This document shows positions 2,388 through 35,733 of a stretch of 64,000 bases of DNA, one piece after another (the stretch's first letter is position 1; every line of letters starts with the position of its first letter). The DNA comes from an uncultured Pseudomonadota bacterium (lineage in GTDB: Bacteria; Oederibacteriota; Muellerivitia; Muellerivitales; Muellerivitaceae). Under the pieces are notes generated by a model that was not told where the DNA came from, made no database searches, and worked only from the letters and a program-made list of their open reading frames with translations. A program made the position numbers and the translations under genes. The stretch is taken from assembly GCA_963836235.1 (NCBI GenBank), contig CAWIIP010000002.1, positions 160,001-224,000 of the forward strand, read 5' to 3'.

Positions 2388-2508
2388 TGGGAGGCGTCCT
2401 CTTTCTTTTTGGTGAGTGGCGGTTATTATAGGAACCGCCATAAGCCTCAAACAAGGCAAGCCACAAAATATTTAGCCGTAAATCGAGGCGAATTTTAGTT
2501 GTAAGTCT

Positions 2509-3073: not shown

Positions 3074-3402
3074 GGAACCTCGCGGGATTACACATTAGAT
3101 GTGGTGATAGTGTGGTGAGCGTGTGCGAGGGTTTTAACATGAGAAAAAAATTATGCGAAAGGAAAAATGAAAATAATTCTCAAACCGAGAATGACGGACA
3201 GGCTTTGTGCGGATATCGTTTCGATGAGGAAAAGGGTATTAGTTGGACAGAAAAGTTGCGGAAAATAATTTAACCGCTCAATGAAGATAAATTCCTCCCG
3301 CCCGAATTCATTAGTGTTCAATGACTACAGACGGAGTAGGAACGATTTATTACAGAAAATTATTAAGGAAAAGTGAAAAACGTTATGAGGTGGTTGTTGA
3401 AG

Positions 3403-16353: not shown

Positions 16354-17276
16354 AGAAATCCCATTAGTGTTGATTTACCTGTTCCTCTACCTCCGATAAT
16401 GGCATTTAACCAAGGGTTAAATTTTGCTGTTAGTGGTACTCCATTACCCATGTACTTAGCGCTTTTTACCTCAATTTGATCAATTATTATTGGACTGTGG
16501 ACATTTGGATCGTCCTGGGTATCTGTAGATCGTTTTATCGAATGAATACCATCAAACAAACCTAGCCGTAAACCCTCCAGACTTGGGTATGTCATTTTCA
16601 CCCACGTAAATCTTCGATTTATTTCCGAAGGTTTGTGAGAATCCGATCCAATAATTTCCGAGAGAACCCTTTTTGAAGAATGATCAGTAAATATTTGTGG
16701 TCTTTGGGAACCAATATCTTTAAATTCGACGGCCGTCAAACCTTTTGAACCTAGAGCCTGTTCTAATGCTTTCCCTGTAAGTTTAAAAAGACCTGCATGG
16801 GAATCATCGACATGCGCGGGAATTGGAATTCCACCTGCGGAAACGACTACTTCTACAACCTTTTCAAATGTTAGATCAGTAACGGCATCAGATTCACCAG
16901 CAGTTCCCTTATATCCAACCGCTCCTCTTAAAGCATCCAAATCGGCCGTTGTTTTGTTTGGGTCCAAAATAACCAATAAATGAATGCCGGGATTTACACT
17001 TATTTCCATTCCCGGGAATAAAACTAATGGTTTATAACCCACGGGCTTTTCTTGATCTAAAACTGCCAAGGCATTTTTTAAAGGATCAACCCAAGCTCCA
17101 GAATTGTGGTCTGTAATAACAACACCATCAAAGCCACCACGCATAAAATCAAGAATCCAATCTCTTGGGGAACGAGCTTTTAAACTTGGATCACCCTTTC
17201 CATAGTCAATGGAGGCGGGAGTATGCGTGTGAAAATCGAATTTCCACCAGCGAGAACCTGGGAATTCTAAACTCAT
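16354..17276 (-). pseudogene. PHP-domain + ATPase protein (TrlF/Ppl-like), truncated just after Walker A
   Basis: DFHTHTPAS, ITDHN, AHVD, GSDSH, then IIGGRGTGKST; fused to the IS fragment. Confidence 0.8.
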
Positions 17277-19942: not shown

Positions 19943-22125
19943 TAAACTTTCACCTCAACTACTTTGGTTGTGTCGTTTCCAAAAATGTCGATCACTTTGA
20001 CTGCAATTTTATATTTACCCTTAGAAGGATACTCGTACTCGGCGCTTTCCATCTCGAGGGAGCGATCTTTATCAGTGCGGAAAGTCTGCCATTGGTTCTC
20101 AAAAATAAACCCTCCGGTCCAAACATCTCTTTCTTTTCCCTTTTCGTCCACCTGCTTTATTATCTCCTTACGGCTCTCATAGTCGAAGTCCACGGCCCAA
20201 TAGTCGATCCAGTCTGTCCATTTCTTTGTGAGCACTTCCCTTTTTACAATGCCCTTTTTGTCCTTGGTGATCTTCACGACCTGGCCGTTCTCAACGGTTA
20301 CTTTAGAACCGCCTGGTTTAAGGGATTCGGAAACAGCTTCCACGTCATCCTGGGTGTAGAAAACACCAAAATTTTTGAGGACAACGGTGGCTTTCATCCC
20401 TTTTATTTTGGGCAACACCTCACCATAAGCCGCGTCAAAGAATTTAACCTGATTCTTTTCAACAGCACGGCGGTCAAAAACATCTTTAGGAATGTACTTC
20501 AGGGACAAGTTAATTCCGTGACGGTTAGCTTCATCTTTATAGGTTTCGATTAGGCCCATTTCAAATTCAAACCCAAGAACATCAACCTTTGTAAGCTTTA
20601 ACTTTTTACAGGACTCAATTATTTCCTGAACCTGGCTAATGGTAACAGGTGCATCCAAGGGGCCAACGAAAACAGCTACACCGCCTCTTTTACCATGAAA
20701 TGGAGCTAGCTGTTGAACACGCTCTCCTTTGTAAGCTTGCAAGATAAGCTTTAGATAATCCTCCTCCTTCTGAAGGGATTGTTTCTTTCGTTCCTTCTCT
20801 GGTAGGTTTGGGTTAATTCCTACAAAGTATTGACGTTCATATTTGCCTAAGTTGAGAATTTCAAAACTACGATAGGGTTTTGTATCCTTTTTTAGTTCTC
20901 GTTGTGCCCCTATAAGGCGTTTACGAGTCGTATGAATTGAGAAACGACCTAGGTCACACCCGATCCATTTGCGGCCAAGTTTTTCAGCAACTGAAAGAGT
21001 CGTCCCGGAACCACAAAAAAAATCAGCAACCAGATCAGTGTCATTTGAGGAGGCTTTAATAATTCGTTCTAGTAATGTTTCAGGTTTTTGGGTCGCATAA
21101 TTAGTTCTTTCCTCGGCCATTGAGTTAACTTCTGAAATATCAGTCCAAATATCACCCAATGATTCCCCTTTTTCTTCATCTAAATATCTTATTAATCTTT
21201 TATTCCCACTTGAGGTTACCCAAATTTTGTTTTGTTTTTCAAACTGTTTAATTGAATCTTCCGAATAATCTCCCAAATCACAATCACGAAATAATCTTCC
21301 TTTTTTATCAGGTCGAAATTTTGTTTTAATAAAATTTTCGTCGTAGGGTTTATAAGCACCGTTCCAAGTCCATTTCTCGGACTTGGAATAAAATAGTATA
21401 GAGTCAGAATTCCTAGCATATTGGCCAGATGTCGCTTTAGCTCCCCGGACTGGCTGCCTTCGCCATCTAATTTCATTTCGAAAATTTTCTAACCCAAATA
21501 ATTCCTGCATTACCAGACGAATTACACTATTCAACCTCCAATCACAATGAACGTAAATAGAGCCATCGTTTGCCAATAAATCCTTCATTAATTTTACCCG
21601 CTCGTACATCATTGATAAATATGAGTCGGCTCCTCTACCCCATGTGTCTCTATAGGCCACGTCTTCTATTACACTTGGCTCTTTTTCTAACAGTCCTTTG
21701 TCGCCAATCTCTAAGTTAATAGAAAAATCTGATCCAATATCAAAAGGAGGGTCGATGTAAATGAGTTTCAAACCACCCACTTCATCGATCTCTTGGCGCA
21801 AAGGCCCATTTTTTAGAGATGAAAGGACTAGTTTATTGTCACCCCAAATAAGTTTATTACTCCAACCACTAGCCTGACGGCCGCTTTGGAGATCTAAAGA
21901 AAAGAGATCCGCCACCTGGCCAGTTTTTTCTGACCTTGGTTCGTCGATTTGTTCGATGACTTGGAACGGAAGAACTGCATTCGTGACTTCTTGGGACTTC
22001 CCTTGCCACACAAGCTCAACTTCAGGAGCATCGGCAAAGAGAGAAAGGCGGTATTTGGGTGGAAGAGGTTCTCCCCGGTCGACCATGGCTTTGATTTGTT
22101 CTTTTTCTTGATCGGAAAGGTACAC
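19942..22125 (-). CDS. mod: Type III adenine DNA methyltransferase (Mod)
   Basis: IYIDPPF, TQKPE, DFFCGSGTT motifs; overlaps res start. Confidence 0.9.
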   Translation of the reverse strand: MYLSDQEKEQIKAMVDRGEPLPPKYRLSLFADAPEVELVWQGKSQEVTNAVLPFQVIEQIDEPRSEKTGQVADLFSLDLQSGRQASGWSNKLIWGDNKLVLSSLKNGPLRQEIDEVGGLKLIYIDPPFDIGSDFSINLEIGDKGLLEKEPSVIEDVAYRDTWGRGADSYLSMMYERVKLMKDLLANDGSIYVHCDWRLNSVIRLVMQELFGLENFRNEIRWRRQPVRGAKATSGQYARNSDSILFYSKSEKWTWNGAYKPYDENFIKTKFRPDKKGRLFRDCDLGDYSEDSIKQFEKQNKIWVTSSGNKRLIRYLDEEKGESLGDIWTDISEVNSMAEERTNYATQKPETLLERIIKASSNDTDLVADFFCGSGTTLSVAEKLGRKWIGCDLGRFSIHTTRKRLIGAQRELKKDTKPYRSFEILNLGKYERQYFVGINPNLPEKERKKQSLQKEEDYLKLILQAYKGERVQQLAPFHGKRGGVAVFVGPLDAPVTISQVQEIIESCKKLKLTKVDVLGFEFEMGLIETYKDEANRHGINLSLKYIPKDVFDRRAVEKNQVKFFDAAYGEVLPKIKGMKATVVLKNFGVFYTQDDVEAVSESLKPGGSKVTVENGQVVKITKDKKGIVKREVLTKKWTDWIDYWAVDFDYESRKEIIKQVDEKGKERDVWTGGFIFENQWQTFRTDKDRSLEMESAEYEYPSKGKYKIAVKVIDIFGNDTTKVVEVKV

Positions 22126-22142
22126 GAAAACTCCTCAGAGGG

Positions 22143-22318
22143 TTATTTCTTCTTGTAAACGTTCAGCCCAATTTTCTCGTCCCGTTCAGGGACGGAGATG
22201 TTCCCCTCTTTGGAAGCAACAATGGTTGTCTTTCCGGAAGAAGAAGGCCCAAACTCCTTGGACAAGTCCACCTTAATAGTGAGGATGTTCCCTCAACTTT
22301 TATTTCGACGTTTTTCAT
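22143..22318 (-). pseudogene. Small protein (MKNVEIKVEG/NILTIKVDLSKEFGPSSSGKT...IGLNVYKKK) with an apparent 1-bp frameshift
   Basis: Adding one base near 22290 restores a coherent 58-aa ORF with RBS; not in the ORF track. Confidence 0.7.
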
Positions 22319-22330
22319 TTTTACCCTCTT

Positions 22331-23347
22331 TTAAGTACCGGATTTAAAAGCGCTTGGGTTTATGTTTACCAACGAAAGATGCCCACCGTCGGAACCTTCA
22401 TTTTTAGAAAAACCGGTGGGTTGAGGGGAAAAAATACACTCAGCGGCCTTGGTGAGAACAACGTCTCTATTAGCCCCTTCTTTTCCGGCTTTTACTAAAG
22501 CTTCATAAGTTGCTAAAGCATTTTGCCTGTGACGGTCAATTACGGAATTGTGTCTATGTGCTGAAAAATTCTTTACCGAAAGAATTAAAAAATAAGAAAT
22601 TGTAATAAAAATTAAAAATTTACTTACAGAAAGTTGAATGGAATCAAAAACCGTAACAGGGACAAAAAATGGAATTTTATGAATAAATAGTGTCGAAACG
22701 GCATAAACCAAAAGGCAAACAGTTAACCAAATAGTTGTTGTTAACCATTTAGATGCTTCTTCCGCGTGTTTATCAGCTTCGTTTTTAAAATATATGGCTT
22801 GTTGAGAAACACCTTGTTCCGCTGCAACTTTTCTAACAGCTTCTAAAACTTTATCTGCTTCCAATTTCCTTTTTTCAAGTTCTGTCTGAAGTTCTCCAGC
22901 CCTATCCGTAACATCCTGAATTAATGCACGCGCCTCACGTTCAAGACGACCAAAATCGGTTGATTTTCTAACAGAATACGAAATGAATGGATGTAATGTT
23001 TTGAATGAGTTCCCATAGCCAGCTTCTAAGGCCTGGACAGAACTATCTCTTGTTTGCGTGGTAAGTCCCGGGGCCGCCTTTAAAATAGTTTCAAGCAAAC
23101 GAAAATCATTGTTTGAAACATTTTTAATATTTGTCAAGATTTCATCCGGGAACGCGTCCAAAACCTCTAAAGGTATTTGTTTATATAAATCAATAATCCT
23201 CGTTGCTGGTTCAACCGCATTGGTAAAATTAATTGCTGTCCCGAACTCCTGAACCCTAGGTAATGAATTTACATCGAAATTTTGGAGTCTTACCAAAGAA
23301 CCTTTTACTTCCTCTATTAACTTATTAGTTGTTTCAGAAATCGGCAT
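22331..23347 (-). CDS. Coiled-coil, two-TM hypothetical protein
   Basis: 338 aa, AT-rich, upstream of the R-M genes. Confidence 0.7.
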   Translation of the reverse strand: MPISETTNKLIEEVKGSLVRLQNFDVNSLPRVQEFGTAINFTNAVEPATRIIDLYKQIPLEVLDAFPDEILTNIKNVSNNDFRLLETILKAAPGLTTQTRDSSVQALEAGYGNSFKTLHPFISYSVRKSTDFGRLEREARALIQDVTDRAGELQTELEKRKLEADKVLEAVRKVAAEQGVSQQAIYFKNEADKHAEEASKWLTTTIWLTVCLLVYAVSTLFIHKIPFFVPVTVFDSIQLSVSKFLIFITISYFLILSVKNFSAHRHNSVIDRHRQNALATYEALVKAGKEGANRDVVLTKAAECIFSPQPTGFSKNEGSDGGHLSLVNINPSAFKSGT

Positions 23348-23444
23348 TTTTATCTCCCGTTTATATTTTTATCAGAAGGTTTTCCCTTCCCCTACCATCC
23401 TAAATTAGTGCGCTTGGTGTCCTTGTGGTTCAAAAGAGGTGGCT

Positions 23445-24329
23445 CTATTTAAATATCTCATTCAGCACGTATGCCAACCTTATCCCAGCCTTCTCAAGCT
23501 GTTGGTCCACGATGGGGCGCATTTTATCAAAGTAATCACCCGGAAGGGGCTTATCGCTGTAATCCTGGGTCCCTGGGTCCATTCCTTTGTAGACCTTAGT
23601 CTTGGCGATCATGTAACTCTCGAAAACCCAATTTTTCTCACTCCCCTTGGTCCAGGTGGCCGCCTGGTCCCCGGGGATCGCCTTTTCAAGGGTGGAGGCC
23701 AGCTCCCGGGGATCCTCCTCGGTCTTAGACTCAATTAGATGGTCCCAAAGAGCGTGTAATTTGATTTTAGCCCCGTGGCCACGGTGGCCAGGGGCTTTGA
23801 ACCGGACCATCTTCTCGTTTCCCCCGCGGTCGCCGTCATCGGCACAATGAAGGGGTTGGTGTAAGTCGCCCATGAAGTGGACGACGAATTTTAGGGCCTC
23901 TAAGCGCTTGGATTTAGGTTGGGTTTCATCCCCCAAAACACCTTCAAATATCTGGAGCTGGTTGATGACGCAATCATTATTGGGGCAATAATCCTGCTCG
24001 TCTTTAAGGGTTAGGTCTTTCCGGATAGGGAGGTCGATGAAATGCCACGGGGCTGTCTCACGGCGCGATTCACGGATTTGGTCCGCCCAATTTGAAATAC
24101 TGGCCAGATCGTCCGGCTGCAATGAAGTCACAAGCTGAATTGCGGGCTTTGCCTGTGCCGATTCCATAGAAGAATCGGCCCCCTGGTCCAGGATGGAGGC
24201 TAATTTTGCCTTGGCGGCCGTGGCGAGGTTGTCCTGGGCGATATAGGCAATGGTTTCGTGGCCGACCGGACCCCATGCGGCCGCCGGCAATGTCCCAAAA
24301 AGATTTAAACAAAGTACGGCAAAAAGCAT
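23445..24329 (-). CDS. S1/P1 nuclease, secreted
   Basis: WGPVGH, WAD, WHFID, VHFMGDLHQPLH, LHALWD; signal peptide from Met at 24329. Confidence 0.93.
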   Translation of the reverse strand: MLFAVLCLNLFGTLPAAAWGPVGHETIAYIAQDNLATAAKAKLASILDQGADSSMESAQAKPAIQLVTSLQPDDLASISNWADQIRESRRETAPWHFIDLPIRKDLTLKDEQDYCPNNDCVINQLQIFEGVLGDETQPKSKRLEALKFVVHFMGDLHQPLHCADDGDRGGNEKMVRFKAPGHRGHGAKIKLHALWDHLIESKTEEDPRELASTLEKAIPGDQAATWTKGSEKNWVFESYMIAKTKVYKGMDPGTQDYSDKPLPGDYFDKMRPIVDQQLEKAGIRLAYVLNEIFK

Positions 24330-24614
24330 CCCGAAAGCCCTCAAGCTTTCGAAGGATTGTGCGAAATTCCTAAAGGTCAAAGGGGGTTTGTTTGACCTGA
24401 TAAATGGAATTTTGCAAAAAAGGAGGGGTATCAGGCCCAGCGAATTGATAATCTTCGCGGCCTTCGACGAGGCTTCAAGCCGAGGAGAAAGCTTTGGGGG
24501 TGCCAATACCGGGGGTATTGGTATACCGGAGAGGTGTGACTTCGTCGAAATTAGGGGCCATAGCGTGAAAAATATTTTCATTTTTTGTACTCAATTCCTA
24601 CTTCTTTTTAAAAA

Positions 24615-25933: not shown

Positions 25934-26187
25934 CGGCTCACTTTAGACGCGGGTTCCGCCTCGTGAAAGCCGAGGCCGTTGCACCTGGGGCAATCGGCCC
26001 CGCCGGGCAAGACACCTCTGCCCCCGCACGGCTTACAGCTTTCCAACCATATCGGCTGTTTCCCGCTTCCGTTGCAATCCCCACAAGGGAATTTTCCGGA
26101 ATAAAATATGCCTTCCAGCCAAAAACCCGGCTCCCCTGGCTCGTCGCCCGTCCCCCCGCATTTTTGGCAGTCGACTTCGCCTCTCAT
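25909..26187 (-). CDS. DnaJ-type CxxCxGxG zinc-finger protein
   Basis: Four CxxCxGxG repeats. Confidence 0.7.
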   Translation of the reverse strand: MRGEVDCQKCGGTGDEPGEPGFWLEGIFYSGKFPCGDCNGSGKQPIWLESCKPCGGRGVLPGGADCPRCNGLGFHEAEPASKVSRWEEVIDY

Positions 26188-26298
26188 GGTGCCGTCCTGG
26201 ATTGCATTTTAGGGCCATCCAAAAAAATCCTGAACAGAAAGTCGAATAATTTTAGACCGGGATACCGCCCCGCCGGCCAGGCCGGCGGGGCGAAAATC

Positions 26299-26667
26299 CT
26301 AATACTCGTTGGGGACCATCAGGACAGGTTTACCCTCCTGCATAGCGACGTAAAACTTCCAGGTTCCCTCCGGGAAATCCGTGAATTCGATCTCCTGCCG
26401 CACAATTTCTGGCCGGTCGTCGTCCTCCTTCATCGTAAGGATCGCCTTGGAGGCTTTGACTTCAAGCGTCCAAAACTGGATTTCCTCCTTCCGGGCATAA
26501 CTGAAAATGGCGTCGATCAGCCAATAGGCCCCGGCAATCTCCGCCACGGCCTGGACCCCTTCGGTGTAAATGCCTCCCGTAATGTGCTTGAAGTAGCTCA
26601 CGCTACCCGTGCTCATGGCAAAAACCTCCTCTATCCTCAACTTCTTTACGGCTTCTTCCCTGTCCAT
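26299..26667 (-). CDS. DUF6876-like mobile-element protein
   Basis: YTEGV..AE.AGAYWLIDAI, QFWTL, QEIEFTDFP, VLMVPNEY. Confidence 0.7.
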   Translation of the reverse strand: MDREEAVKKLRIEEVFAMSTGSVSYFKHITGGIYTEGVQAVAEIAGAYWLIDAIFSYARKEEIQFWTLEVKASKAILTMKEDDDRPEIVRQEIEFTDFPEGTWKFYVAMQEGKPVLMVPNEY

Positions 26668-26684
26668 AGATGCTCCTTATCTTT

Positions 26685-27130
26685 ATTTGGGAGGGGCCCC
26701 CTCCGGGGGGCGGCCCTCAAAGAATCTGGGCCGCAACACGGAGGCGAGAGAGGGTTGGTGGGTGGAGATTGAGCCGTGCGAAAGAAGCACCTAGCCAACC
26801 CCAGCAAACCGCTTCGGGCAAAGTGCCGAAGGGCGGACGCCGCGGCGGACGCATCTAGGCATTTAGCGGCCCTTGCCCCTGGGCCAGACGGTATTTGGCG
26901 GCCCAGGGGTGCGATCTATCAGGCCAGCGGCACGATGAGGTTTGCGAACCTTGAAGCCGTTCGATCTTGGGGGTCCGGGGGGATCTTCCGCCCGGGCTAG
27001 GAGAGGGGCGCGGGGAGAGGGGTTTTTCTTTCCCCGAAAATTCCGAGGCCCGGCATAGGGAAGGTTACACGGCCGCTTTGCGGCCGGCGAACCTTCTTCA
27101 AACCCGCCAGGGTGCCGGGCCGAGCAAAAC
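26685..27130. promoter_or_regulatory. Structured leader, family 1, copy 1 (divergent)
   Basis: Shares hairpins and motifs with 28405-28990 and 31707-32140. Confidence 0.6.
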
Positions 27131-27160
27131 AAAAGGCCCCCCTAAGAGGGCCTCCGGTCT

Positions 27161-27550
27161 TCAAGCCGTAGGGTGTGAAGATTTTTCCAAGGGGTGTTTC
27201 TTGGAACACTTAGGGCAAAACTTCCCGTCTCTGCCCTCGACGGGCAAGGAATCCTTCAAGAGAATTTCCGTGTTGCAAACTTGGCACCAAGTGGCGTAGG
27301 TATCATCCGAAAGGATTTGAGGAACCAATTTTTTAATAAGGCCCTTCCCTACCGTGGCCCGGCCAAATTCATAAGCCCAACGGGTGGCGGTGTACTTATC
27401 CTTTCCCGGCCAAGTAAGGCGGCGGTATTCGTCTCCCTGGGCGGCGTCCCCTCCGTCGTCGTCCTCCACCTTGAAAACTTGTAAGCCGGGAATGTCTGAC
27501 ACCACATCGGACAAAACCCCACCTTCCATAAAAATGATAATTTTCGGCAT
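27161..27550 (-). CDS. Hypothetical protein with C-terminal CxxC..CxxC
   Basis: Start MPKIIIFMEGG with RBS AGGAGG. Confidence 0.6.
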   Translation of the reverse strand: MPKIIIFMEGGVLSDVVSDIPGLQVFKVEDDDGGDAAQGDEYRRLTWPGKDKYTATRWAYEFGRATVGKGLIKKLVPQILSDDTYATWCQVCNTEILLKDSLPVEGRDGKFCPKCSKKHPLEKSSHPTA

Positions 27551-27560
27551 AACGTCCTCC

Positions 27561-27857
27561 TTAAAGTTCGTATTTTTCGGCAAAGTTTGAAAGTGATTCA
27601 GCGGAAGCGGCACAAACGTCCAGCGCGCGCGCGGCGGCCAAGCCGACAAGGGCGCTCCCGCCTTCCTCAAAATCCAGTTTTGAAAATATCGTTTCGGCCT
27701 GGTCGGTGAGGTAGTTGTTTAAAGCTCCCGCAACTTCCAAAAGGCCGTGATGGCTTACGAGAAACGCTAAAACGTCATAAGGCTCGTAAGTCTCAAGGCG
27801 GTATTTTTTAAACTCCTTTACGGTTTCTTTTTCCGGCCCTAACAATTTGATTTCCAT
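27561..27857 (-). CDS. Hypothetical protein
   Basis: RBS AGGAGG; co-oriented downstream of the RadC-like gene. Confidence 0.6.
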   Translation of the reverse strand: MEIKLLGPEKETVKEFKKYRLETYEPYDVLAFLVSHHGLLEVAGALNNYLTDQAETIFSKLDFEEGGSALVGLAAARALDVCAASAESLSNFAEKYEL

Positions 27858-27897
27858 AAATCCTCCTAAAATTTTTCATCCCCAAAGGGGCGATTTC

Positions 27898-28386
27898 TTA
27901 AACCAAAAGCCCTGCGGTGCGGAAGGAAAAGTGGCCTTCGTGGGTGACTATCAAGTGATCATGAACGGTTATCCCCAGGGCACGGGCGGCGGTGATAATT
28001 TGGCGGGTCAATTGCTTGTCCCCTTCCGATGGTTCAAGGCTTCCGGCTGGGTGATTGTGGGAAAATATGATCCCCGTGGCGTTTAACTCCAAAGCTTTTT
28101 TTAGTACCTCTCTTGGATAAACGGCGGTATGGTCCACGGTTCCTTCGCTGTTCAAAACCGTTTCTAAAACGTGGTTGCGGTGGTCGAGGTACATGGTGAC
28201 AAAAGCCTCTTTGTCCCTGCCTCCGATGTATTTGGCAAAATAGGCCACTACATCATCTGGGCTTGTTACAACCGGGCCTCTCTCGTAATCGGTCCTTGCT
28301 TCGGACCATGAAACCGGGGGAACCGTGGGGGGAATTTTGAACATCACTTCCAAAGGCATTTCTAACTGCTTGATTCTCTTGCTCAT
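27898..28386 (-). CDS. RadC-like JAB-domain protein
   Basis: EAFVTMYLD, VYPREV, HNHPAG..PSEGD, VHDHLIV. Confidence 0.92.
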   Translation of the reverse strand: MSKRIKQLEMPLEVMFKIPPTVPPVSWSEARTDYERGPVVTSPDDVVAYFAKYIGGRDKEAFVTMYLDHRNHVLETVLNSEGTVDHTAVYPREVLKKALELNATGIIFSHNHPAGSLEPSEGDKQLTRQIITAARALGITVHDHLIVTHEGHFSFRTAGLLV

Positions 28387-28404
28387 TTTGAACGCTCCGC
28401 TTTT

Positions 28405-28990
28405 TTATTAGAGGAGAGAGCACCCTCCGGGTGCGCCCCCTCAAAAATCCTTGGGGGCGCATACGGAGCGAGTAAGGTGTTTGTGTTGGGGCAAATCAAT
28501 GTCGGCGGGTCCTGCGCCTTGGTGTTAGCAGACCGGGAAAATTCCCAAACAGGTTTTGGGCCGAAAGACGAGGAACGAGGCGTGGCCCGTTTGGGAATTT
28601 AGGCGCTGACCGATCCCGGCGGCGATAGCCGCCCGTCGATTTGGTTTGCGTCCTCTATGTCTTTCGTTTCTGGGGTTGCCAGGGGTCACTGTCCCTTGGC
28701 TAGGGTGGGGATATAGGGGAGGGTCTTTTCCCTCCCCCTGGGGGGTCCGGGGGATGGCTCGAACGAGCCCGCCGCCCGGGCTAGGGTGGGCACCTGGCCC
28801 GTCGCTTTCAAAGCGAGGGCCTCGCAGTGGTGGTGCAAACAGCATTGAAGCTGTTTGCAAAAGGGTAGGGGTACTTCCCTTCCCTGCTTTAATGATTTTC
28901 GAGGCGCGGCAAAGGGAAGGTTACACGGCCAAAGGCCGGCGAACCTTCCTCAATCCCGATAGGGGCCGCACCGAGACAAAGAACACCTTA
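28405..28990. promoter_or_regulatory. Structured leader, family 1, copy 2
   Basis: Long similarity to 31707-32140 with nested inverted repeats. Confidence 0.7.
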
Positions 28991-29265
28991 ATCGGCTTTT
29001 CCCCATACACCTTCCCGACCCTTCTCAAGATAGACGCGTTTCACGTAAAGTGTAATATGTAGGCCTGGCCCCTTTTTCTATGGGGAAACGCCGCCCGGTC
29101 TACCGTGTGGAAATTGGAGTCGCGGGGAAAAGTTAATCCATAAAAACCGACGAACGAATTTGGATTTTAGTGAGGAGGTTTTTAACTTTGAGGGCCGGCG
29201 ATTAAAAAATTACACAGGCAAAAGGAGGAAATCTGTCCAGAGGGTCCAAAGCCCCTTTAATGGAA

Positions 29266-29880
29266 TTACTGTGAGGGTGGGAGAGGGAGAGTTGTGATAT
29301 TTAATTTTTTATTGACGTATTGAATCCATTTCTCAGCGGAATTTCTTTGGTCATCTGTCTGGGCCGTTTGAACAGCCGCATTAAAATATTTTAACGAATC
29401 TTGCCACCTATCCTCTTTAGTTAATTTTACTCCATACGAGAAGTAAGAATTAAAGTTTTCACCACCTTCCAAATTTGAAGAATTGGAAGCTTGGAGGTCG
29501 GCATTCATATTTTTCTGGTTAAGTTTATTCCAATCAGAGGTAATGGCGTCTACGATTAAAGGAATAAAACCTAATAGGAAACCTGGAACAACATCCAAAA
29601 CTATCCATCCACCATCAACACCATTACTCAACGAGCTTGTTTGGGTGGTATATCCAGGTTTCCTAAATTCAACATTATGAGTTTTGTTAGATTCTAGAGG
29701 AACAGAAACTGGGGTAGTTCCCCTTTGCAAACCATCAACATAAACTTCTGCACCAGGGGGATTGGAGGAAAATTCAACAGGTTCTGCACCACCTTTAAAG
29801 ACCGTTGCGCAACCGGTAGAAATAAGGCTGAACACTAACATTAAAGCCATTAACTTTTTCATAACACTCCGAATGATCAA
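29266..29880 (-). CDS. PEGA-domain lipoprotein
   Basis: STGC lipobox; SNPPGAEVYVDG..GTTP; AT-rich. Confidence 0.8.
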   Translation of the reverse strand: MIIRSVMKKLMALMLVFSLISTGCATVFKGGAEPVEFSSNPPGAEVYVDGLQRGTTPVSVPLESNKTHNVEFRKPGYTTQTSSLSNGVDGGWIVLDVVPGFLLGFIPLIVDAITSDWNKLNQKNMNADLQASNSSNLEGGENFNSYFSYGVKLTKEDRWQDSLKYFNAAVQTAQTDDQRNSAEKWIQYVNKKLNITTLPLPPSQ

Positions 29881-30008
29881 GCGTCCACTTATTTCATCGA
29901 GATATAAGGTTAATTGTCGTGACTACCCTTGGTCAACACAAAAATAGGCTAGGAGGGGAGGCACTTCCGTTGCACACCATCCTTTTTGCGACAGCCATGT
30001 GCAGGTAT

Positions 30009-30326
30009 TTAGGCACTCTTTTTCCCGCGGGCGAGTTCCCTTTCAAATAGAATCCGCACCCCGAAAGCGTGAAGAACCTTTTCTAAACTCGAAAGGGTTG
30101 GATTTCCCTTCTCGGAAAGCATCGTGTAAAGGGATTCCCTCGCAAGTTGTGTTTCCTTGGAAAGCTTTTTCATCCCGCCTAGGGCGTCGGCCACGTTCTT
30201 CAATGCCTTCAAAAAGTATTTAAAATCTCCGGTTTCCCAAGCGGCGTTTATGTATCGGACCCGTGTTTTAAGGTCTTGAAGTTCTTCAAACAAATAACTT
30301 TTATGGTCAATCAATCCAAATTTCAT
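30009..30326 (-). CDS. Addiction-module antidote (HI1420-like HTH)
   Basis: FLKALKNVADALGGMKKLSKETQLARESLYTMLSEKGNPTL. Confidence 0.88.
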   Translation of the reverse strand: MKFGLIDHKSYLFEELQDLKTRVRYINAAWETGDFKYFLKALKNVADALGGMKKLSKETQLARESLYTMLSEKGNPTLSSLEKVLHAFGVRILFERELARGKKSA

Positions 30327-30661
30327 TTCACGCTCCCTTTAAAAGCCGCCCATAGCTTGGTGGCTTTCTTTGTGTCATTATCCTGATTGTCTTTTTCTCC
30401 CCCACAAACCACGACGATGATGGCTCCCTTATGATAGCCGTAATAAACCCGGAAACCTCTTCCGTAATGAATCCTTAATTCCCAAAGGCCCCCGGTCTTT
30501 GGCAGGTCGTGATGATCGCCAAAATTCCCGTCCTCCATCCGGTCAACCGCCATCCGTATAAGGTCCTTGGCGGTTTCGTCCTTTAAGCGGCGGTGCCACT
30601 CCTTGTATAAAACCTTACCGTCTACCTCCAAATATTTAACTACAAAGGGGTGGTTTTCCAT
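30323..30661 (-). CDS. RelE/ParE-family toxin (HI1419-like)
   Basis: GNFGD...GLWELRIHYGRGFRVYY...GGEK..Q..D. Confidence 0.88.
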   Translation of the reverse strand: MENHPFVVKYLEVDGKVLYKEWHRRLKDETAKDLIRMAVDRMEDGNFGDHHDLPKTGGLWELRIHYGRGFRVYYGYHKGAIIVVVCGGEKDNQDNDTKKATKLWAAFKGSVK

Positions 30662-30671
30662 GCCTGAACCT

Positions 30672-30700
30672 AGTGTAATATTTATATTACTCATTGTCAA
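30672..30700 (-). promoter_or_regulatory. Sigma70 promoter with overlapping operator for the TA operon
   Basis: TTGACA-17 bp-TACACT; palindrome GTAATAT-TT-ATATTAC at 30675-30690. Confidence 0.75.
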
Positions 30701-30755
30701 ATCTTCCTTTCGAAAACAATCCCGAAAGGGGCCGCACCGAGACAAAGAACACCCC

Positions 30756-30792
30756 AAAAAAAGCCCCCCGGTTTGAAACCGGGGGGCTTTTC
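30756..30792. terminator. Intrinsic terminator after ardC
   Basis: AAAAGCCCCCCGGTTT-G-AAACCGGGGGGCTTTT. Confidence 0.85.
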
Positions 30793-30815
30793 TTCCTGAA
30801 AGGATGGAGCTGTTA

Positions 30816-31688
30816 TTAAGCGGCTTCCTCCTTCTTTTCAAATTTCACGCCTAAGATAAAGTCGGCTGCGGATTGGGCGAGTGATGCCGCCCGGAAAATG
30901 GCGCGGGTGTCATCCTTTAAAACCTTGATCCAGTTTTGGACATAGGCGGCGTGTTGGGTGTCGTATTCGTAGCCGACATGCCCAGCCAAGAAAGCCCCGC
31001 CTATTTCGGCGACAAGTTCCTCGAAGGCATAATCAACTGAACCGAAAACCAGGGACTGCTTGCGGTTAAGCCGTTTCGGGTGGCCGCTCCAGTGGGTTAG
31101 CTCATGGTAACTCGTGGAAAAAAATTTCTCCTCCGTCTTGAAAGAACGGCGAGGGGGAAGGTTGATATAGTCCAAAGTCGGGGAGTAAAAAGCCTTGTCG
31201 GGGTTTTCTTCAACGATCTTCGCCCCGGATTGGGTGAGGATGCGCTCGGCTTCCTCGTTCTTGTTGAAAGGCTTTTCCTCGGCGCTCTTGGGCCGCAAGT
31301 GGTCGAGTCCCTCGGTTTGGTCCAGGTTGAAAACCGTAAAATATTTTAGGTATTTGATAACCTTCTTTTCAAAATCCCCTTCCGCTTTTTCCTCCTTCAC
31401 CGTCAAGGGCTTGAAGAAAATGACCTCAACCCCCTTGGCCCCGGCCTTGATGTTGCCTCCCGCTGTTTTGGCCTGTTGGTAGGTGAGCCAAGAGTTACAG
31501 GAAAAACCCTGGCGGCTCGCAACCGAGGTAAGCCAAATAACATTCACCCCCCGGTATGCCTTCCGGGTGGCGGCGTTCTTGGGGAAGTTTCCGGTTTTAA
31601 TCCAGGGCGTTTCCCAAAAAAGATTTCCTTTCTCCATGTCCTCCAAAATTTGGTTGGTGATTTTCTCCATCAAATCGTTTGTTTTCAT
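30816..31688 (-). CDS. ardC: ArdC-family antirestriction ssDNA-binding protein
   Basis: W..PW, YRGVN, WLTYQQA, FTVFNLDQ, HELTHWSGH..RL.R, YAFEELVAE. Confidence 0.92.
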   Translation of the reverse strand: MKTNDLMEKITNQILEDMEKGNLFWETPWIKTGNFPKNAATRKAYRGVNVIWLTSVASRQGFSCNSWLTYQQAKTAGGNIKAGAKGVEVIFFKPLTVKEEKAEGDFEKKVIKYLKYFTVFNLDQTEGLDHLRPKSAEEKPFNKNEEAERILTQSGAKIVEENPDKAFYSPTLDYINLPPRRSFKTEEKFFSTSYHELTHWSGHPKRLNRKQSLVFGSVDYAFEELVAEIGGAFLAGHVGYEYDTQHAAYVQNWIKVLKDDTRAIFRAASLAQSAADFILGVKFEKKEEAA

Positions 31689-31706
31689 CTGGCCTGCTCC
31701 CTTTGA

Positions 31707-32140
31707 TTTATTAGAGGAGAGCCGCCCTCCGGGTGGGCCCCCTCAAAAATCCTTGGGGGCCCAAACGGAGCGAAAGAGGTGTTGTTGTTGGGGTAAAACA
31801 AGATCGAGGGTCCTGCGGTGTTCCTTTAGCAGATCGGGAAAATTCCAAAACAGTTGTGGGGCCGGATAAGCCGACGAAGGAGGCCCGGCCCGTTTTGAAA
31901 TTTAGGCGCCGACCGATCCCGACGGCGTTTATCCGCCCTCACCCTCCAGGTGAGGGCGAAGGTTGATAATGCCAACTCTATAAGAGTTGGTAAAAGCCGC
32001 CCGGCGATTTGTTTTGCGTCCACGTTGTCTTTCGCTTCCGGGGGTTCCGGGGGTCACTTCCCGCCGGGCTAGGGATGGGAATAGGGAAGGGGCTGTTCCC
32101 TTCCCTTGGGGGGGTCCGGGGGAAACGCCGCCCGGACTAC
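31707..32140. promoter_or_regulatory. Structured leader, family 1, copy 3
   Basis: Homologous to 28405-28790 with extra hairpins at ~31930-31995. Confidence 0.7.
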
Positions 32141-32244
32141 AGGTTTGGGAAACGGTTGAAAAGGTTGGGGGATAAATCGGCGGGAACAAAACCTTTAAAA
32201 AAAAGCCGAAAGGCTTTTCACCTTATGGGCCAAAAAAGCGACCG

Positions 32245-32580
32245 GCCTTGGGTCTCACGCCCCTTCCCTCGTCCCCAAATACCGTGGACGGTGAACCAGG
32301 CCTCGAACGCTGCCGTTGCACTCTCGCGATTCGTCGCTTAAAGGATTGCCTGACCAGAGCTCCAGGTCATCCGCTCCGCTACTTCCCTTCCGCCAAAAGC
32401 ACGCGGAAGTCCCTTAATCATCGTTGCCGGAAAAACCGGCAACCTCGACTTCCGCACCAGGCAGGCCTGCTTGAGGGCAGGCCGCCAAGAATCCTTTTTA
32501 CCCGCGCCCCCCTACTCGTTCGTAGAGGGGGGCGCAGTAAAAAGGCGCGAAACCCTCAAATAAAAATGAGGAGGATTCGC
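32245..32580. promoter_or_regulatory. Structured leader, family 2, copy 1
   Basis: Homologous to 35060-35316; long hairpin CTTTTTAC..GCGCCCCCC..GGGGGGCGC..GTAAAAAG before the RBS. Confidence 0.65.
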
Positions 32581-33000
32581 ATGAATCCAAAGATTGAAGT
32601 AGAGAAGTTGAATATCGCCAAGAAAGGACAGCAGGTCGGGACGTTCTCCGCTCGGGTGGGCTTCGATGGCGGGTGTGAGGTTACTCTACCCGGTATGAGG
32701 ATCGTCGAGGGGGCCAAAGGGACTTTCGTGGATGTTCCGTCAAGGCAGTTCAAGGACGTGGGCTTTGTTCCCTTTTACTACTTGAACAAGGCCTTAAGGG
32801 ATTTAATCACGCATGAGGCGCTGGATGCCTACCGCAAAGCGGTGGCGGAAAAGGCGGGTGAGAAACCGACGAGTCCGGCGGTGCCGGCGGCCCCTGCAGG
32901 GCCCGCAGTTGCGGCGGTAAAGCCGGAAAGTCCAGTGGTTCCCTCTCAAGCGAAAACGTGGCCACGGAAGGAATGGAAGCCAAACCCGGCAAGGAAATAG
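32581..33000 (+). CDS. SpoVG-like nucleic-acid-binding protein
   Basis: GTFSARVGFD..TLPGMRIVEGAKGTFVDVPSR..LRDLI..ALDAY; RBS GAGGAGG. Confidence 0.7.
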   Translation: MNPKIEVEKLNIAKKGQQVGTFSARVGFDGGCEVTLPGMRIVEGAKGTFVDVPSRQFKDVGFVPFYYLNKALRDLITHEALDAYRKAVAEKAGEKPTSPAVPAAPAGPAVAAVKPESPVVPSQAKTWPRKEWKPNPARK

Positions 33001-34444: not shown

Positions 34445-34574
34445 ATTTTTTCTCCTTAAATCCTTTCTTCTTTGATTAGTTCCAAAAACCTATCGATTTC
34501 CTGGTCGGGAACCCTGAAAAGTTCCTCTATGTTTTTGATCTCTTCGTTCATTTCCCCTGCTCCTTCGCTTTTTT

Positions 34575-34945
34575 TTCGGGGCTTTTAAGTTCCTGCCCCC
34601 ACCGGCACAAGCCGGCGGTGGGGGCAGGAACTTGAAGGGGATTCCGCAGGAAAAATTTGGTTTCAATGCGACAGCAGCGCCGACCTTGCCGACCATGACA
34701 ATTGCGATCTTCAATTGGCGTGGGCGGTGCTTTGCAGTCGGCGCATTTGAAAGGAATTAAATTTTCTTAGGAATAGACCATTGGCAAAGCGGGGGCACCT
34801 CGCCCTTTGCCCACAAGGCAAAGGGCGGCGTCTTGGTTGTGCAAACAGCAATAAGCTGTTTGCACATAGGGGCGGGTTGGCCCCGGATGGTTAAATGGAT
34901 GAAGGTTACACGCCCGCGAAATCAGCGGTCGGCGAACCTTCTTAG
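34575..34945. promoter_or_regulatory. Structured leader, family 3, copy 1 (plus shared distal motifs)
   Basis: Homologous to 39005-39245; GCGCCGAC/GTCGGCGC stem. Confidence 0.65.
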
Positions 34946-35059
34946 GTATTTTTCGAAGGGACTTAGGCTTTCAACAAGGCCTTAAAACCAAAACCGCGAA
35001 CGGCGATCCGAAACCTCAAGTCAAAGATAAAGAATGCCAACACAGATTCATAAGGAATC

Positions 35060-35316
35060 AGCAACCGGCCTGGCCCTCCGGGACCCCGGGCAAAATCAGC
35101 CCGGCGGCCTCGAACGCTGTCGGCCTCCTCCTCCGTCGTCGCCTTTCGCGATTCGTCGCTTAAAGCAATTTTCTAACAGGGCTACAGGTCATCCGCTCCG
35201 CTGCTTCCCTTCCGCAAAGGAACATACAAACTTTTTACCGCGCCCCCCTACTCGTTCGTAGAGGGGGGCGCAGTAAAAAGGCGCGAAACCCCAAAATAAA
35301 AATGAGGAGGATTCGA
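35060..35316. promoter_or_regulatory. Structured leader, family 2, copy 2
   Basis: Homologous to 32245-32580. Confidence 0.65.
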
Positions 35317-35733
35317 ATGAATCCAAAGATTGAAGTTGTGAAGTTGAATATCGCCAGGAAGGGACACCAGGTCGGGACGTTCTCCGTCAAGGTTGGGTTC
35401 GATGGCGGGTGTGAAGTGACGCTACCGGGGATGAGGATCGTCGAGGGTTCCAAAGGAACCTTCGTGGATCTGCCGGCGAGAAAGTTCAAGGAAGGGGGCT
35501 TTGTTCCCTTCTACTACTTGAACAAGTCTTTGAAGGATTTGATCACCAAGGAAGGGCTGGAGAATTACCGAAAGGCCGGGACGGGGAAGCAACCGGAGAA
35601 GGCGGCATTCGCGGTCCCTGCGGCCGCAAGGCCAGCGGCGGCCAGCGCGACCATGGTTTCAAAACCAACGGTTCCTGCTCCGGCGAAAACGTGGCCACGG
35701 AAGGAGTGGAAACCGAATTCATTTAAAAAATAA
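35317..35733 (+). CDS. SpoVG-like protein (close paralog of 32581-33000)
   Basis: Near-identical N-terminal ~85 aa and KTWPRKEWKPN tail. Confidence 0.7.
   Translation: MNPKIEVVKLNIARKGHQVGTFSVKVGFDGGCEVTLPGMRIVEGSKGTFVDLPARKFKEGGFVPFYYLNKSLKDLITKEGLENYRKAGTGKQPEKAAFAVPAAARPAAASATMVSKPTVPAPAKTWPRKEWKPNSFKK

Follow-up and report, generated by a model that had tools for sequence, protein, structure and literature searches.

Three genes share a family of long non-coding leaders

What is the role of the long non-coding repeats that precede three minus-strand genes in the window (the whole 64,000-nt stretch of DNA analyzed here), and do they act as DNA or as RNA? The original prediction described non-coding repeats that end at the ribosome-binding site (RBS) of each gene. 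This description held: a direct-repeat finder and a three-way alignment of the upstream blocks showed the three leaders to be homologous, and the conserved block stops 11–15 nt short of the ATG in each.

26299–26667, minus strand: DUF6876 gene, served by leader copy 1 (Pfam PF21781, E = 1.9e-29)
26668–27132: leader copy 1, preceding the DUF6876 gene
27898–28386, minus strand: RadC-like JAB gene, served by leader copy 2 (Pfam PF04002, E = 2.9e-41)
28387–c.28990: leader copy 2, preceding the RadC gene
30816–31688, minus strand: ardC gene, served by leader copy 3 (Pfam PF08401, ArdC N-terminal domain, E = 3.2e-33; PF18818, zincin peptidase, E = 3.7e-44)
31689–32140: leader copy 3, preceding the ArdC gene

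The layout is a single leader copy per gene unit, 430–700 nt long, with its end at the RBS. None of the eight ORFs that overlap the leaders has a Pfam match, and in 23 of 26 copies an ATG ORF begins 3–20 nt past the conserved block.

The leaders are mosaics of hairpin modules

Reading the three copies from the gene outward gave the following parts.

26668–26759, plus strand: copy 1 proximal module, with RBS complement, P1, P2 and an invariant ACGGAG (sequence read)
26696–26701 (GCCCCC) / 26706–26711 (GGGGGC), plus strand: copy 1 hairpin P1
26710–26716 (GCGGCCC) / 26728–26734 (GGGCCGC), plus strand: copy 1 hairpin P2
26760–27132, plus strand: copy 1 middle part and distal modules; the middle is unrelated to the P3–P5 domain of copies 2 and 3
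26966–27000, plus strand: copy 1 shared distal motif, GGGGG-TCC-GGGGG...CCCGGGCTAGG
27035–27132, plus strand: copy 1 distal-most hairpin module, M_d
27132–27155, minus strand: intrinsic-terminator-like hairpin of the upstream gene, abutting leader copy 1 (terminator scan)
28387–28649, plus strand: copy 2 core (folds, consensus structure, pair counts)
28420–28425 / 28429–28434, plus strand: copy 2 P1
28432–28440 (TGCGCCCCC) / 28453–28461 (GGGGGCGCA), plus strand: copy 2 P2, the proximal hairpin, with 3 nt in common with P1
28491–28509 / 28634–28649, plus strand: copy 2 long stem P3, including GCAAATCAA (28491–28499) / TTGGTTTGC (28641–28649)
28539–28550 / 28589–28600, plus strand: copy 2 inner stem P4b
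c.28558–28563 / 28583–28588, plus strand: copy 2 P5
28618–28623 / 28628–28633, plus strand: copy 2 small hairpin H_b, loop GATA
28650–28990, plus strand: copy 2 distal modules, with two GGGG..CCGGGG..CCCGGCTAGG units, a GGGGAGGG/CCCTCCCC hairpin, a GCAAACAGC/GCTGTTTGC hairpin and M_d
28897–28987, plus strand: copy 2 M_d
31689–32017, plus strand: copy 3 core
31722–31727 / 31731–31736, plus strand: copy 3 P1, with G-T on the plus strand
31734–31742 (TGGGCCCCC) / 31755–31763 (GGGGGCCCA), plus strand: copy 3 P2, the proximal hairpin
31793–31801 (GTAAAACAA) / 32009–32017 (TTGTTTTGC), plus strand: copy 3 long-range stem P3
c.31928–31995, plus strand: two extra hairpins of copy 3, within the loop of H_b
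32018–32140, plus strand: copy 3 distal modules, with two GGGGG-TYC-GGGGG...CCCGG units and a GGGAAGGGG/CCCTTCCC hairpin

As predicted, the proximal hairpin covaries (the arms of P2 differ yet pair in copies 1, 2 and 3), and copy 3 carries additional hairpins at a loop, namely the two inside H_b. The claim that long-range stems are kept stood for copies 2 and 3 and failed for copy 1, where these stems are absent. What copy 1 has in common with the others is limited to the hairpins next to the gene and the hairpin modules at the distal end: its profile match (26678–26759) is restricted to the first c.86 positions of the family profile, and covariance model R1 matches its proximal region (G000:C2:186653-186777, E = 7.7e-16). 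Bases 26740–26946 of copy 1 are 100% identical to a stretch of another genome (G026:C8:27426-27632), and sequence related to copy 2 extends on to about 29103. Some modules, M_d and the GCAAACAGC hairpin among them, are found in more than one leader.

Covariation supports a conserved multi-helix fold

About 27 distinct copies were found in the window and related genomes, and 17 of them made up the consensus alignment, with shuffles and slid partners as controls. The consensus is a multi-helix structure of 62 pairs, 32 of which have changed on both sides, a count that none of 500 shuffles reached. Paired cells amount to 96.8% (81.4% in shuffles), and the covariation score is 0.408, against 0.131 when shuffled and at most 0.146 with slid partners. 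In helix 5, a 12-bp stem whose arms lie 40 nt apart, all 12 pairs have changed on both sides. The conserved structure of the leaders is real. The mosaic make-up with recurring modules, and the hairpins inserted in loops, would also suit double-stranded operator arrays or miniature mobile repeats without a folded function, but such repeats leave the wholly replaced yet still paired helix 5 unexplained, and we find this reading hardly credible.

The leaders fold into a branched domain of several helices with a four-way-type junction, in which the loops are conserved and the stems covary freely; a series of short hairpins comes after it. In 300-nt DNA folds the leaders are local energy minima, at −67 to −74.5 kcal/mol versus about −20 to −55 in neighboring genes; these values fall just above the −75 kcal/mol cut-off given in the excerpted text of PMC12672017. 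P1 and P2 overlap by 3–4 nt and both alternative pairings covary, with joint changes in three segments (UGC/GCA/UGC, UGG/CCA/UGG and CCGC/GCGG/CCGC).

Overlapping helices with three covarying segments are what RNA switches have, and a multi-helix junction with conserved loops is RNA-like. These features point to the main rival of a DNA element, a long structured 5′UTR acting as RNA on the mRNA (minus) strand, which we consider a real if doubtful possibility. The P3–P5 helices would then be a sensor or protein-binding domain, and the P2/P1 alternative pairing and the CUCUCCUC tract would control access to the RBS. Such a switch, whether riboswitch-like or dependent on a protein, would work through translation or antitermination and be comparable to the radC and STAXI motifs. 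The continuity of the conserved block into the RBS at a fixed distance from the ATG also favors this rival, as do a P1 loop that reads GGA on the mRNA strand, G-U pairs in P1 on that strand in diverged relatives, and the filing of structured motifs before radC and anti-restriction genes as RNAs in Rfam, as described in the available part of PMC2864571. On the other hand, a candidate GGAGGG/CUCUCC helix of such a leader has no both-sided change at all.

The fold appears to favor the template strand

The original prediction also held that most non-canonical pairs are G-T on the plus strand, the template of the served genes. This was so in covariation-supported helices (48 G-T versus 6 A-C cells; 15 versus 5 columns; 35 versus 5 column-by-cluster events), and less so once pairs predicted only on the minus strand were added (48 versus 35 cells). 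Consensus energies are −94.0 kcal/mol for the plus and −77.4 kcal/mol for the minus strand, and the structure conservation index is higher on the plus strand in four out of four settings. The distal modules lean the same way (16 versus 8 and 47 versus 10). Of the 19 copies that lack the insertion, 16 have a plus-strand H_b loop of the form G-N-A or G-N-N-A closed by C-G, and GCGAAGC occurs in 6; GCGAAGC is an unusually stable DNA mini-hairpin. An interior P3 position is T-G on the plus strand in 13 of 22 copies and is therefore a C-A mismatch in the mRNA. Wobble events in P1 are divided, with one in favor of each strand.

Because of the wobble pairs, the structure conservation index and the loop types, the plus strand appears favored as the folding strand, by a moderate margin that varies with the structural model. 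The mRNA strand, whose better support would have spoken against the prediction, did no better in wobble, energy or structure conservation index, and the wobble counts, the P3 mismatch and the lower index all weigh against an mRNA leader.

The same plus-strand evidence (wobble, structure conservation index, distal modules and H_b loops) could reflect a single-stranded DNA fold whose role is in DNA metabolism and not in transcribing the neighboring gene, either as ssi priming sites or as hairpins shielding the incoming strand from nucleases, SSB or RecA. The many serial GC-rich hairpins would suit such a role, as would the G-quadruplex motifs, two of the window's five falling in the leaders on the plus strand, and Frpo also makes primer RNA according to the excerpted text of PMC12672017. 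However, priming or shielding needs neither a tight junction with the RBS and start codon nor one copy per gene unit, and we judge this role quite improbable.

Promoters and terminators around the leaders

Canonical sigma-70 promoters are in use in this genome: a score of 9 of 12 or more was reached by 19 of 46 regions upstream of tRNAs, compared with 24 of 500 random 120-mers. The three window leaders contain no canonical sigma-70 site on either strand, and a scan for a conserved −35/−10 pair at 16–18 nt spacing found none on either strand of 24 aligned copies and none in the window. This negative is weak, because the same scan finds none in the Frpo region of the F plasmid either. The leaders of oppositely oriented SpoVG-like genes likewise have no canonical promoter, so the absence of sigma-70 boxes does not single out genes for which the plus strand is the template. 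The second copy in this genome has a 9-of-12 promoter-like site on the sense strand, ~80 nt upstream of the core, which would suit an mRNA leader but lies within the shuffle range (1.1 expected).

Terminator-like hairpins, read by eye, stand before several other copies as well as copy 1, and in some copies about 10 nt or less separate a terminator from the first conserved module. This close spacing argues against a long mRNA leader, as does the lack of a canonical promoter at the distal ends of the window's three leaders. The plus-strand bias would also be consistent with transcription of that strand into a cis-antisense RNA that overlaps the 5′UTR and represses the gene. We think this very unlikely, given that there is no conserved promoter, that the leaders have no plus-strand promoter-like site, and that the sequence to the left of the block consists of the unrelated coding starts of different genes.

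A new family on mobile elements of one candidate phylum

The leaders form a new family, as had been proposed. A search of the whole window with Rfam models (cmscan, gathering score) gave no match, and at E up to 1 the five matches in 26000–33000 all lie outside the leaders; nor did blastn find a match, either in 72,556 plasmid records (word size 11, query 28387–28800) or in 50,697 phage records. All copies seen come from a single family of candidate phylum FCPU426, where they occupy ICE-like islands; copies 98–100% identical are present in other genera. The host here is an uncultured soil bacterium, and the leaders sit on its mobile element.

The predicted link with establishment genes was borne out in several genomes, where copies stand before RadC or ArdC genes on ICE-like islands; 20 downstream ORFs scanned comprised 6 RadC, 5 ArdC and 9 without a family. 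Genes for a TraG/VirD4-type coupling protein, for ParA/ParB and for integrases occur at related loci. In all four loci where a coupling-protein gene and leader-served genes are both present, they point the same way, an arrangement compatible with transfer of the template strand that does not pin it down; the window itself contains no coupling protein. Searches of five genomes for relaxase (PF03432) and VirB4 (PF03135) gave no match, NCBIfam gave no name for the candidate proteins, and an oriT was not found. Since neither an oriT nor a relaxase was found, we can only infer which strand is transferred. These absences, the branched fold and the lack of a conserved −35/−10 pair leave the single-stranded DNA promoter of the original prediction putative.

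A tentative model for the leaders

We tentatively favor, at somewhat under an even chance, the reading that the leaders are an expression element for establishment genes that acts on the transferred single strand and is joined to a 5′UTR and translation module. The model builds on the observed repeat family, its structure, its gene association and the moderate template-strand bias; to these it adds what we infer, namely which strand is transferred, that single-stranded DNA is transcribed, and where transcription starts. The leaders would be lineage-specific, portable expression cassettes of FCPU426 integrative conjugative or mobilizable elements, serving establishment and anti-restriction genes (ArdC, RadC, DUF6876 and small unknown genes). 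Their conserved fold would form on the template strand, presumably the strand that enters the recipient single-stranded. There the P3–P5 domain and distal hairpins may resemble double-stranded DNA and serve as a platform on which transcription starts or is primed ahead of complementary-strand synthesis, making the leaders a functional analogue of the Frpo/ssi promoters that IncF and IncI plasmids carry. The gene-proximal block (P2, P1, pyrimidine tract, A/U-rich spacer and RBS) would be the 5′UTR and translation-initiation region.

The leaders probably control the timing of anti-restriction gene switch-on, perhaps while the mobile element is still single-stranded after transfer. A bolder version, which we hold to be rather unlikely, would make the leaders a novel class of expression element that works as single-stranded DNA outside Proteobacteria, in which the branched covarying fold on the transferred strand of FCPU426 ICEs recruits the machinery for transcription or priming with no mimic of a sigma-70 box and is fused to a P2/P1 5′UTR switch that gates ArdC, RadC and DUF6876 translation right after entry.

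Early expression of anti-restriction genes decides the survival of a conjugative element on entering a new host, and detailed knowledge of its control elements is so far confined to a few enterobacterial plasmids. The present family, new to Rfam and from an uncultured phylum, has unusually strong covariation for an element tied to mobile DNA (32 compensatory pairs, about 27 copies). If the template-strand fold is true, it would provide comparative, homology-independent evidence of single-stranded DNA regulatory structures in ICEs far from Proteobacteria, and a defined structure with which to ask whether such elements need a sigma-70 box mimic. If the leaders act as RNA, they would be a large new addition to the cis-regulatory leaders of the radC/STAXI kind, one in which the alternative-pairing platform is clear.

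Comparison with known systems

The radC RNA motif (RF01754) and the STAXI motif (RF01728) are conserved structured non-coding motifs, and whether STAXI acts as RNA or as single-stranded DNA was asked but not decided, in the excerpted texts of PMC2864571 and PMC5587801. Like the leaders, and on the same partial sources, they adjoin radC, anti-restriction, ssb and integrase genes and are common in ICEs. Unlike them, as far as those extracts describe the motifs (Proteobacteria, Enterobacterales), the leaders belong to a different phylum and are much larger and modular, and the two covariance models match no leader (cmscan, E up to 1, 26000–33000). Loop types also differ: GNA/GNNA on the template strand points to DNA here, whereas UUCG pointed to RNA for STAXI in the extracts.

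The Frpo/ssi single-stranded DNA promoters of IncF and IncI plasmids fall into classes 1–3 in the available portions of PMC11541004 and PMC12672017. The leaders resemble them as long (300–500 nt), strongly folding non-coding stretches in homologous copies, one before each anti-defense or establishment operon, with a gene orientation that makes the folded strand the template and no ordinary double-stranded promoter evident. Leader length and the one-per-operon layout agree with plasmid F, whose intergenic regions before anti-restriction and ssb genes measure 412–480 nt, and with the description in the accessible part of PMC12672017. Unlike Frpo/ssi, the leaders have no sequence similarity to plasmid records (blastn), and their host is an ICE-like island of an uncultured phylum, where their activity is only predicted. 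The Frpo region of F folds as one long imperfect hairpin, whereas the leader fold is branched with serial hairpins. Reconstituted −35/−10 boxes were not found in the leaders by a scan that is insensitive and blank on F Frpo too, so that only the branched architecture firmly separates the leaders from a stem-loop carrying boxes.

The CUP (conserved upstream) repeats of the leading region of IncN plasmid pKM101/R46 are conserved blocks of several hundred bp that end just before leading-region genes such as ard; they are portable expression and regulation cassettes, with ordinary promoters under plasmid repressors. The leaders are likewise repeated conserved blocks, each ending right before its gene. 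Unlike CUP repeats, they match no plasmid (blastn) and are defined by their covarying structure.

Structured leaders precede the DUF6876, RadC and ArdC genes

The window holds three copies of the Family-1 leader, a homologous structured non-coding repeat, each lying before a gene of the - strand. The + strand is thus the template strand of the leader-served genes, and the - strand is the mRNA sense.

Leader-served genes and leader copies in the window
26299-26667, - strand: DUF6876 gene (Pfam), leader copy 1 upstream
26668-27132: leader copy 1, at higher + strand coordinates than the DUF6876 gene
27898-28386, - strand: RadC gene (Pfam), leader copy 2 upstream
28387 to ~28990, with related sequence to ~29103: leader copy 2, upstream of the RadC gene
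30816-31688, - strand: ArdC gene (Pfam), leader copy 3 upstream
31689-32140: leader copy 3, upstream of the ArdC gene

A protein-coding reading of the leaders was rejected, with a Pfam match in 0/8 overlapping ORFs. Read on the + strand from the gene end, a full copy has the RBS complement at a distance of 11-15 nt to the start codon; an A/T-rich spacer and a conserved GAGGAGAGAG come next. Two hairpins follow, P1 (6-bp stem and 3-nt loop, invariant in its loop and closing pairs, CC-TCC-GG) and P2 (9 bp, a 12-nt loop and an invariant C5/G5 top), the outer 3-4 nt of P2 being common to P1; beyond P2 come an invariant ACGGAG and a linker. The long stem P3 closes a domain of ~160 nt that contains a junction with a small invariant hairpin, stem P4a, the 12-bp stem P4b, P5 with its conserved purine-rich loop, a conserved junction AGGCGCYGACCG and the small hairpin H_b. 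Outside P3 lies a row of GC-rich hairpin modules, the last of which is M_d. Copy 1 possesses the proximal block and the distal modules, and its middle part is unrelated to the other copies. The extra hairpins that the original prediction placed at a loop of copy 3 are indeed present, two in number, within the H_b loop.

M_d-type modules, GGGAAGGTT-ACAC-GGCC..GGCC-GGCG-AACCTTC, occur in the window at 27035-27132, 28897-28987, 30717-30753 and 34901-34943, where they lie at the outer end of various leaders and, in part, ahead of a HigB-like toxin gene. They covary in relatives (GAAACCT/AGGTTTC), and their start is often 10-45 nt or less from an upstream terminator. We also noted five canonical G-quadruplex motifs in the window, three on the + and two on the - strand; two of them (28703-28723 and 32066-32086, on the + or template strand) fall in the distal parts of copies 2 and 3.

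Compensatory changes support the leader structure

Searching the window and 19 related loci (17 stretches plus two further loci, L006 and L019) with a profile yielded 31 leader copies, 27 of them distinct and all from one bacterial family; the 24 copies of the consensus used for the strand comparison form 18 clusters at 90% identity, several being near-identical. The RNAalifold consensus of 17 full-length distinct copies comprises 62 pairs, and for 32 of these at least one sequence retains the pair via changes on both sides. Such changes affect all 12 pairs of P4b and 10 of the 17 pairs of P3. By an independent count, 96.8% of cells are paired vs 81.4% in shuffles. The covariation score was 0.408 vs 0.131 in shuffled alignments (0/500 reached 0.408), and it was at most 0.146 when partners were slid by 1-3 columns. 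Because covariation lies far above both the shuffled and the slid controls, we conclude that the leader structure is real, with stems that covary as originally proposed. Beside these compensatory changes, the idea that the repeats are operators or simply inert is scarcely credible.

The + strand is the likely folding strand of the distal domain

Since Watson-Crick pairs fit both strands equally, we used four strand measures. In the covarying helices of the 24-copy consensus, the + strand has 48 G-T vs 6 A-C cells (15 vs 5 columns; 35 vs 5 column-by-cluster events), a test that is model-dependent, the structure having been derived on the + strand. One interior P3 position is T-G on the + strand in 13/22 copies, C-G in four, and T-A or A-T in three; its T-G would read as a C-A mismatch in mRNA. 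With pairs predicted by the - strand fold alone included, the count becomes 48 G-T vs 35 A-C cells. Twenty-four of the 35 A-C cells sit in two columns beside H_b, whose bases could instead pair at the top of P3 entirely by Watson-Crick pairs (17, 17 and 16 of 17 G-C), and we therefore give these 24 cells little weight. The claim that non-canonical pairs are mostly G-T on the + strand thus stands for the + strand covarying helices and is weaker once the - strand-only pairs are counted.

Consensus energy (-94.0 kcal/mol on the + strand vs -77.4 kcal/mol on the - strand) and structure conservation index (+/- values of 0.80/0.74, 0.74/0.67, 0.49/0.42 and 0.45/0.37 over RNA and DNA parameters and both alignments) both favour the + strand, so the better mRNA-strand support that would speak against the original prediction did not appear. 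The distal modules lean to the + strand as well, with 16 G-T vs 8 A-C cells in M_d and 47 vs 10 in the U/GGGAGGG module. On the + strand, the H_b loop is GAA in eight copies, GATA in five, and otherwise GACA, GTA or GTCA; 16/19 insertion-free copies have loops of these types on a C-G closing pair. Six of them have the sequence GCGAAGC, a DNA mini-hairpin of exceptional stability.

Single-sequence folding z-scores (+/-: DNA -4.99/-4.71, RNA -3.80/-3.60) did not separate the strands, and P1 has one wobble event for each strand. The P1 loop is GGA on the mRNA strand, which counts against a + strand reading. As a strand control, the Family-2 leaders (a second family, described below) were uninformative: interior G-U pairs number one for the sense strand and zero for the template strand, and 11 further G-T cells all fall in a single terminal pair. 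Taken as a whole, we consider it probable that the + (template) strand is the one that folds, for the P3-P5 domain and the distal modules. Alongside this lean, we weighed a single-stranded DNA structure serving in priming or protection, to which we assign a low probability, and a cis-antisense RNA, which we judge very unlikely.

The proximal block belongs to the mRNA

In mRNA sense, the proximal block reads CACCUCUUU-CGCUCCGU-P2-CCC GGA GGG UGC-CUCUCCUC-A/U-rich-GGAG-N7-AUG. The final 3-4 nt of the P2 3' arm double as the first nt of the P1 5' arm, and the partners of this shared segment change together by copy type (UGC/GCA/UGC; UGG/CCA/UGG or CGG; CCGC/GCGG/CCGC; and GC/GC/GC in copy 1). P1 and P2 are hence mutually exclusive pairings that both covary, which is the signature of a switch. 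One might speculate that a GGAGGG/CUCUCC helix frees the RBS; its changes are one-sided, with zero compensatory. A possible pairing between CUCC and the RBS motif GGAG would span only 4-5 bp, in a part where the alignment is shifted.

Being continuous with the RBS, the proximal block must belong to the mRNA irrespective of the role of the distal domain. An mRNA leader that acts wholly as RNA would accommodate this block and the GGA loop of P1; set against the + strand lean of the P3-P5 domain, we find that reading rather unlikely.

Promoter and terminator signals around the leaders

We scored sequences against TTGACA-N16-18-TATAAT, counting at least 9 of 12 as a sigma-70 site. In the source genome, 19/46 tRNA upstream regions reach this score vs 24/500 random 120-mers; this FCPU426 genome uses canonical sigma-70 promoters before tRNA genes. 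No such site was found in the three window leaders on either strand. A column-wise hexamer survey of the 24 copies returned recurrent + strand hexamers that are -35-like (TTGTCT/TTGACT) and -10-like (CATTAT), with no -35/-10 pair at promoter spacing, and no sigma-54 or ECF-type sites were seen in the leaders on inspection by eye. Unlike the leader-served genes, the HigB/Gp49-like toxin and HI1420-type antidote pair between the RadC and ArdC units (30009-30697, - strand) has its own promoter-like TTGACA-17-TACACT at 30700-30672. The sigma-70 scan was also blank in its positive control, the Frpo region (a single-stranded DNA promoter) of plasmid F, and missing boxes are for this reason weak evidence. 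Among 24 sequencing runs, none recorded as RNA contains this region. Copy 1 is directly flanked at its distal end by a terminator, and terminator-like hairpins, read by eye, lie 10-45 nt before M_d in several relatives, so that each leader-gene unit seems to need its own start signal.

The leaders were found in one bacterial family, near genes of mobile elements

The proximal block occurs four times in the source genome, three times in the window and once at C2:1173208-1173466 before another RadC gene. BLAST detected copies in 7 to 9 of 30 other same-family genomes, depending on the query, in 0/30 genomes outside the family (first sample) and in 0/68 from the remainder of the phylum. With a covariance model built on the proximal block, 12/30 family genomes had matches, four of the matches being weak and diverged, as against 0/68 genomes elsewhere in the phylum. 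By record titles, the hosts belong to candidate division FCPU426. For public genome contigs the scan pattern was too loose and its 120 loci were then checked with the profile: among the matches listed, 8/120 fit, all of them already-known FCPU426 records. In metagenome contigs, 3/87 loci belong to the leader family. An Rfam search agreed with the proposal of a new family, no known Rfam family explaining the leaders, and blastn against plasmid and phage collections returned no match to them.

An ATG ORF starts 3-20 nt past the conserved block in 23/26 copies. The 20 downstream ORFs scanned in relatives comprise six RadC, five ArdC and nine without a Pfam family; with RadC or ArdC after 11/20 relatives' copies, and DUF6876, RadC and ArdC in the window, the suggested tie to establishment genes is upheld. 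The related loci encode a coupling protein of the TraG/VirD4 type and ParA/ParB, and also have recombinases (serine or tyrosine), toxin-antitoxin pairs and type III restriction-modification genes. The window shares with them the restriction-modification genes, toxin-antitoxin pairs and a serine recombinase; it also has insertion sequences, and it has no coupling protein. The coupling-protein gene is co-oriented with the leader-served genes in 4/4 loci holding both. Pfam searches recognised no relaxase or VirB4 in five genomes, and NCBIfam gave no conjugation function for 14 unnamed proteins. Leader copies recur at 98-100% identity in other genera, which indicates that the elements move.

Several further observations concern these islands. 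First, 207 nt of the copy 1 middle (26740-26946) are 100% identical to G026:C8:27426-27632, from another genus, and copy 2 is 98-99% identical to copies in the related genome G025, pointing to recent transfer between genera. Second, a conserved protein of 383-386 aa (L033:8750-9901 and L035:2678-3838) lies directly upstream of ParA-ParB and the coupling protein in two related elements; it has no match in Pfam or NCBIfam and is a candidate relaxase or initiator. Third, the genome's second island (L045, G000:C2:1163001-1183000) contains the fourth leader copy before its RadC gene, a TOTE-type primase-helicase (770-3205) and AbiEi, and a TraG/VirD4-like gene (C2:1183496-1183897) lies ~10 kb downstream. 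Finally, downstream of the leader-served genes in the window, cargo at 16287-24581 (- strand) includes an S1/P1 nuclease (23445-24581), a DUF6161-like protein and a type III restriction-modification pair (methylase 19942-22125, Res helicase-endonuclease 17276-19942); the RadC-then-type-III layout is also found in L043 and L045.

Other leaders in the window

Family-2 leaders (32240-32582 and c.34990-35318, + strand) precede two SpoVG-like genes (32581-33000 and 35302-35733) in opposite orientation to the ArdC and RadC genes. They have a GCGCCCCCCTAC/GTAGAGGGGGGCGC hairpin ~50 nt ahead of the start codon and a covarying CGAACGC/GCGATTCG helix, and copies occur in 7/30 related genomes. A third leader type (34554-34960) lies before a small - strand gene (ATG complement at 34551-34553). 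It contains a near-perfect 20-bp hairpin (~34578-34625), and in 300-nt DNA folding no other part of the 22-38 kb stretch reaches its energy (-84 kcal/mol for the + strand vs -70 for the - strand). It also has the distal modules M_d (34901-34943) and GCAAACAGC/GCTGTTTGC (34846-34866) in common with Family-1 leaders.

A tentative model and its relation to known elements

We tentatively propose, at somewhat short of even confidence, that the leaders are composite cassettes combining an expression element that acts on single-stranded DNA with a translational platform for establishment genes. The leader family, its structure, its gene association and its strand lean are the observed parts of this model. 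The P3-P5 domain and distal hairpins would fold on the incoming single strand, and the fold would permit transcription of the adjacent establishment gene ahead of the complementary strand. The transcript would start between P3 and the gene, carrying P2/P1 as a translational platform. We infer the identity of the transferred strand, transcription from single-stranded DNA and this start site.

Structured elements of this kind are already known. According to two reports (PMC11541004, PMC12672017), Frpo/ssi promoters precede ssb, psiB, ardA, klcA and methylase operons on IncF and IncI plasmids; according to two others (PMC2864571, PMC5587801), radC and STAXI motifs, which are frequent in ICEs, adjoin radC and anti-restriction genes. 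In 300-nt windows with DNA parameters, the leaders reach -67 to -74.5 kcal/mol vs ~-20 to -55 in neighbouring genes, just short of the -75 cut-off in the analysis of plasmid pESBL (PMC12672017). When its template strand is folded, the 479-nt stretch upstream of ssb in plasmid F gives a single long, imperfect hairpin (-119 kcal/mol, z -6.4), whereas the FCPU426 leaders are branched, and this difference in architecture is real. As judged by sequence, the leader family is homologous to no Frpo/ssi, radC or STAXI element; what is new is an FCPU426 family with no homology to the known elements and with an architecture unlike that of Frpo.
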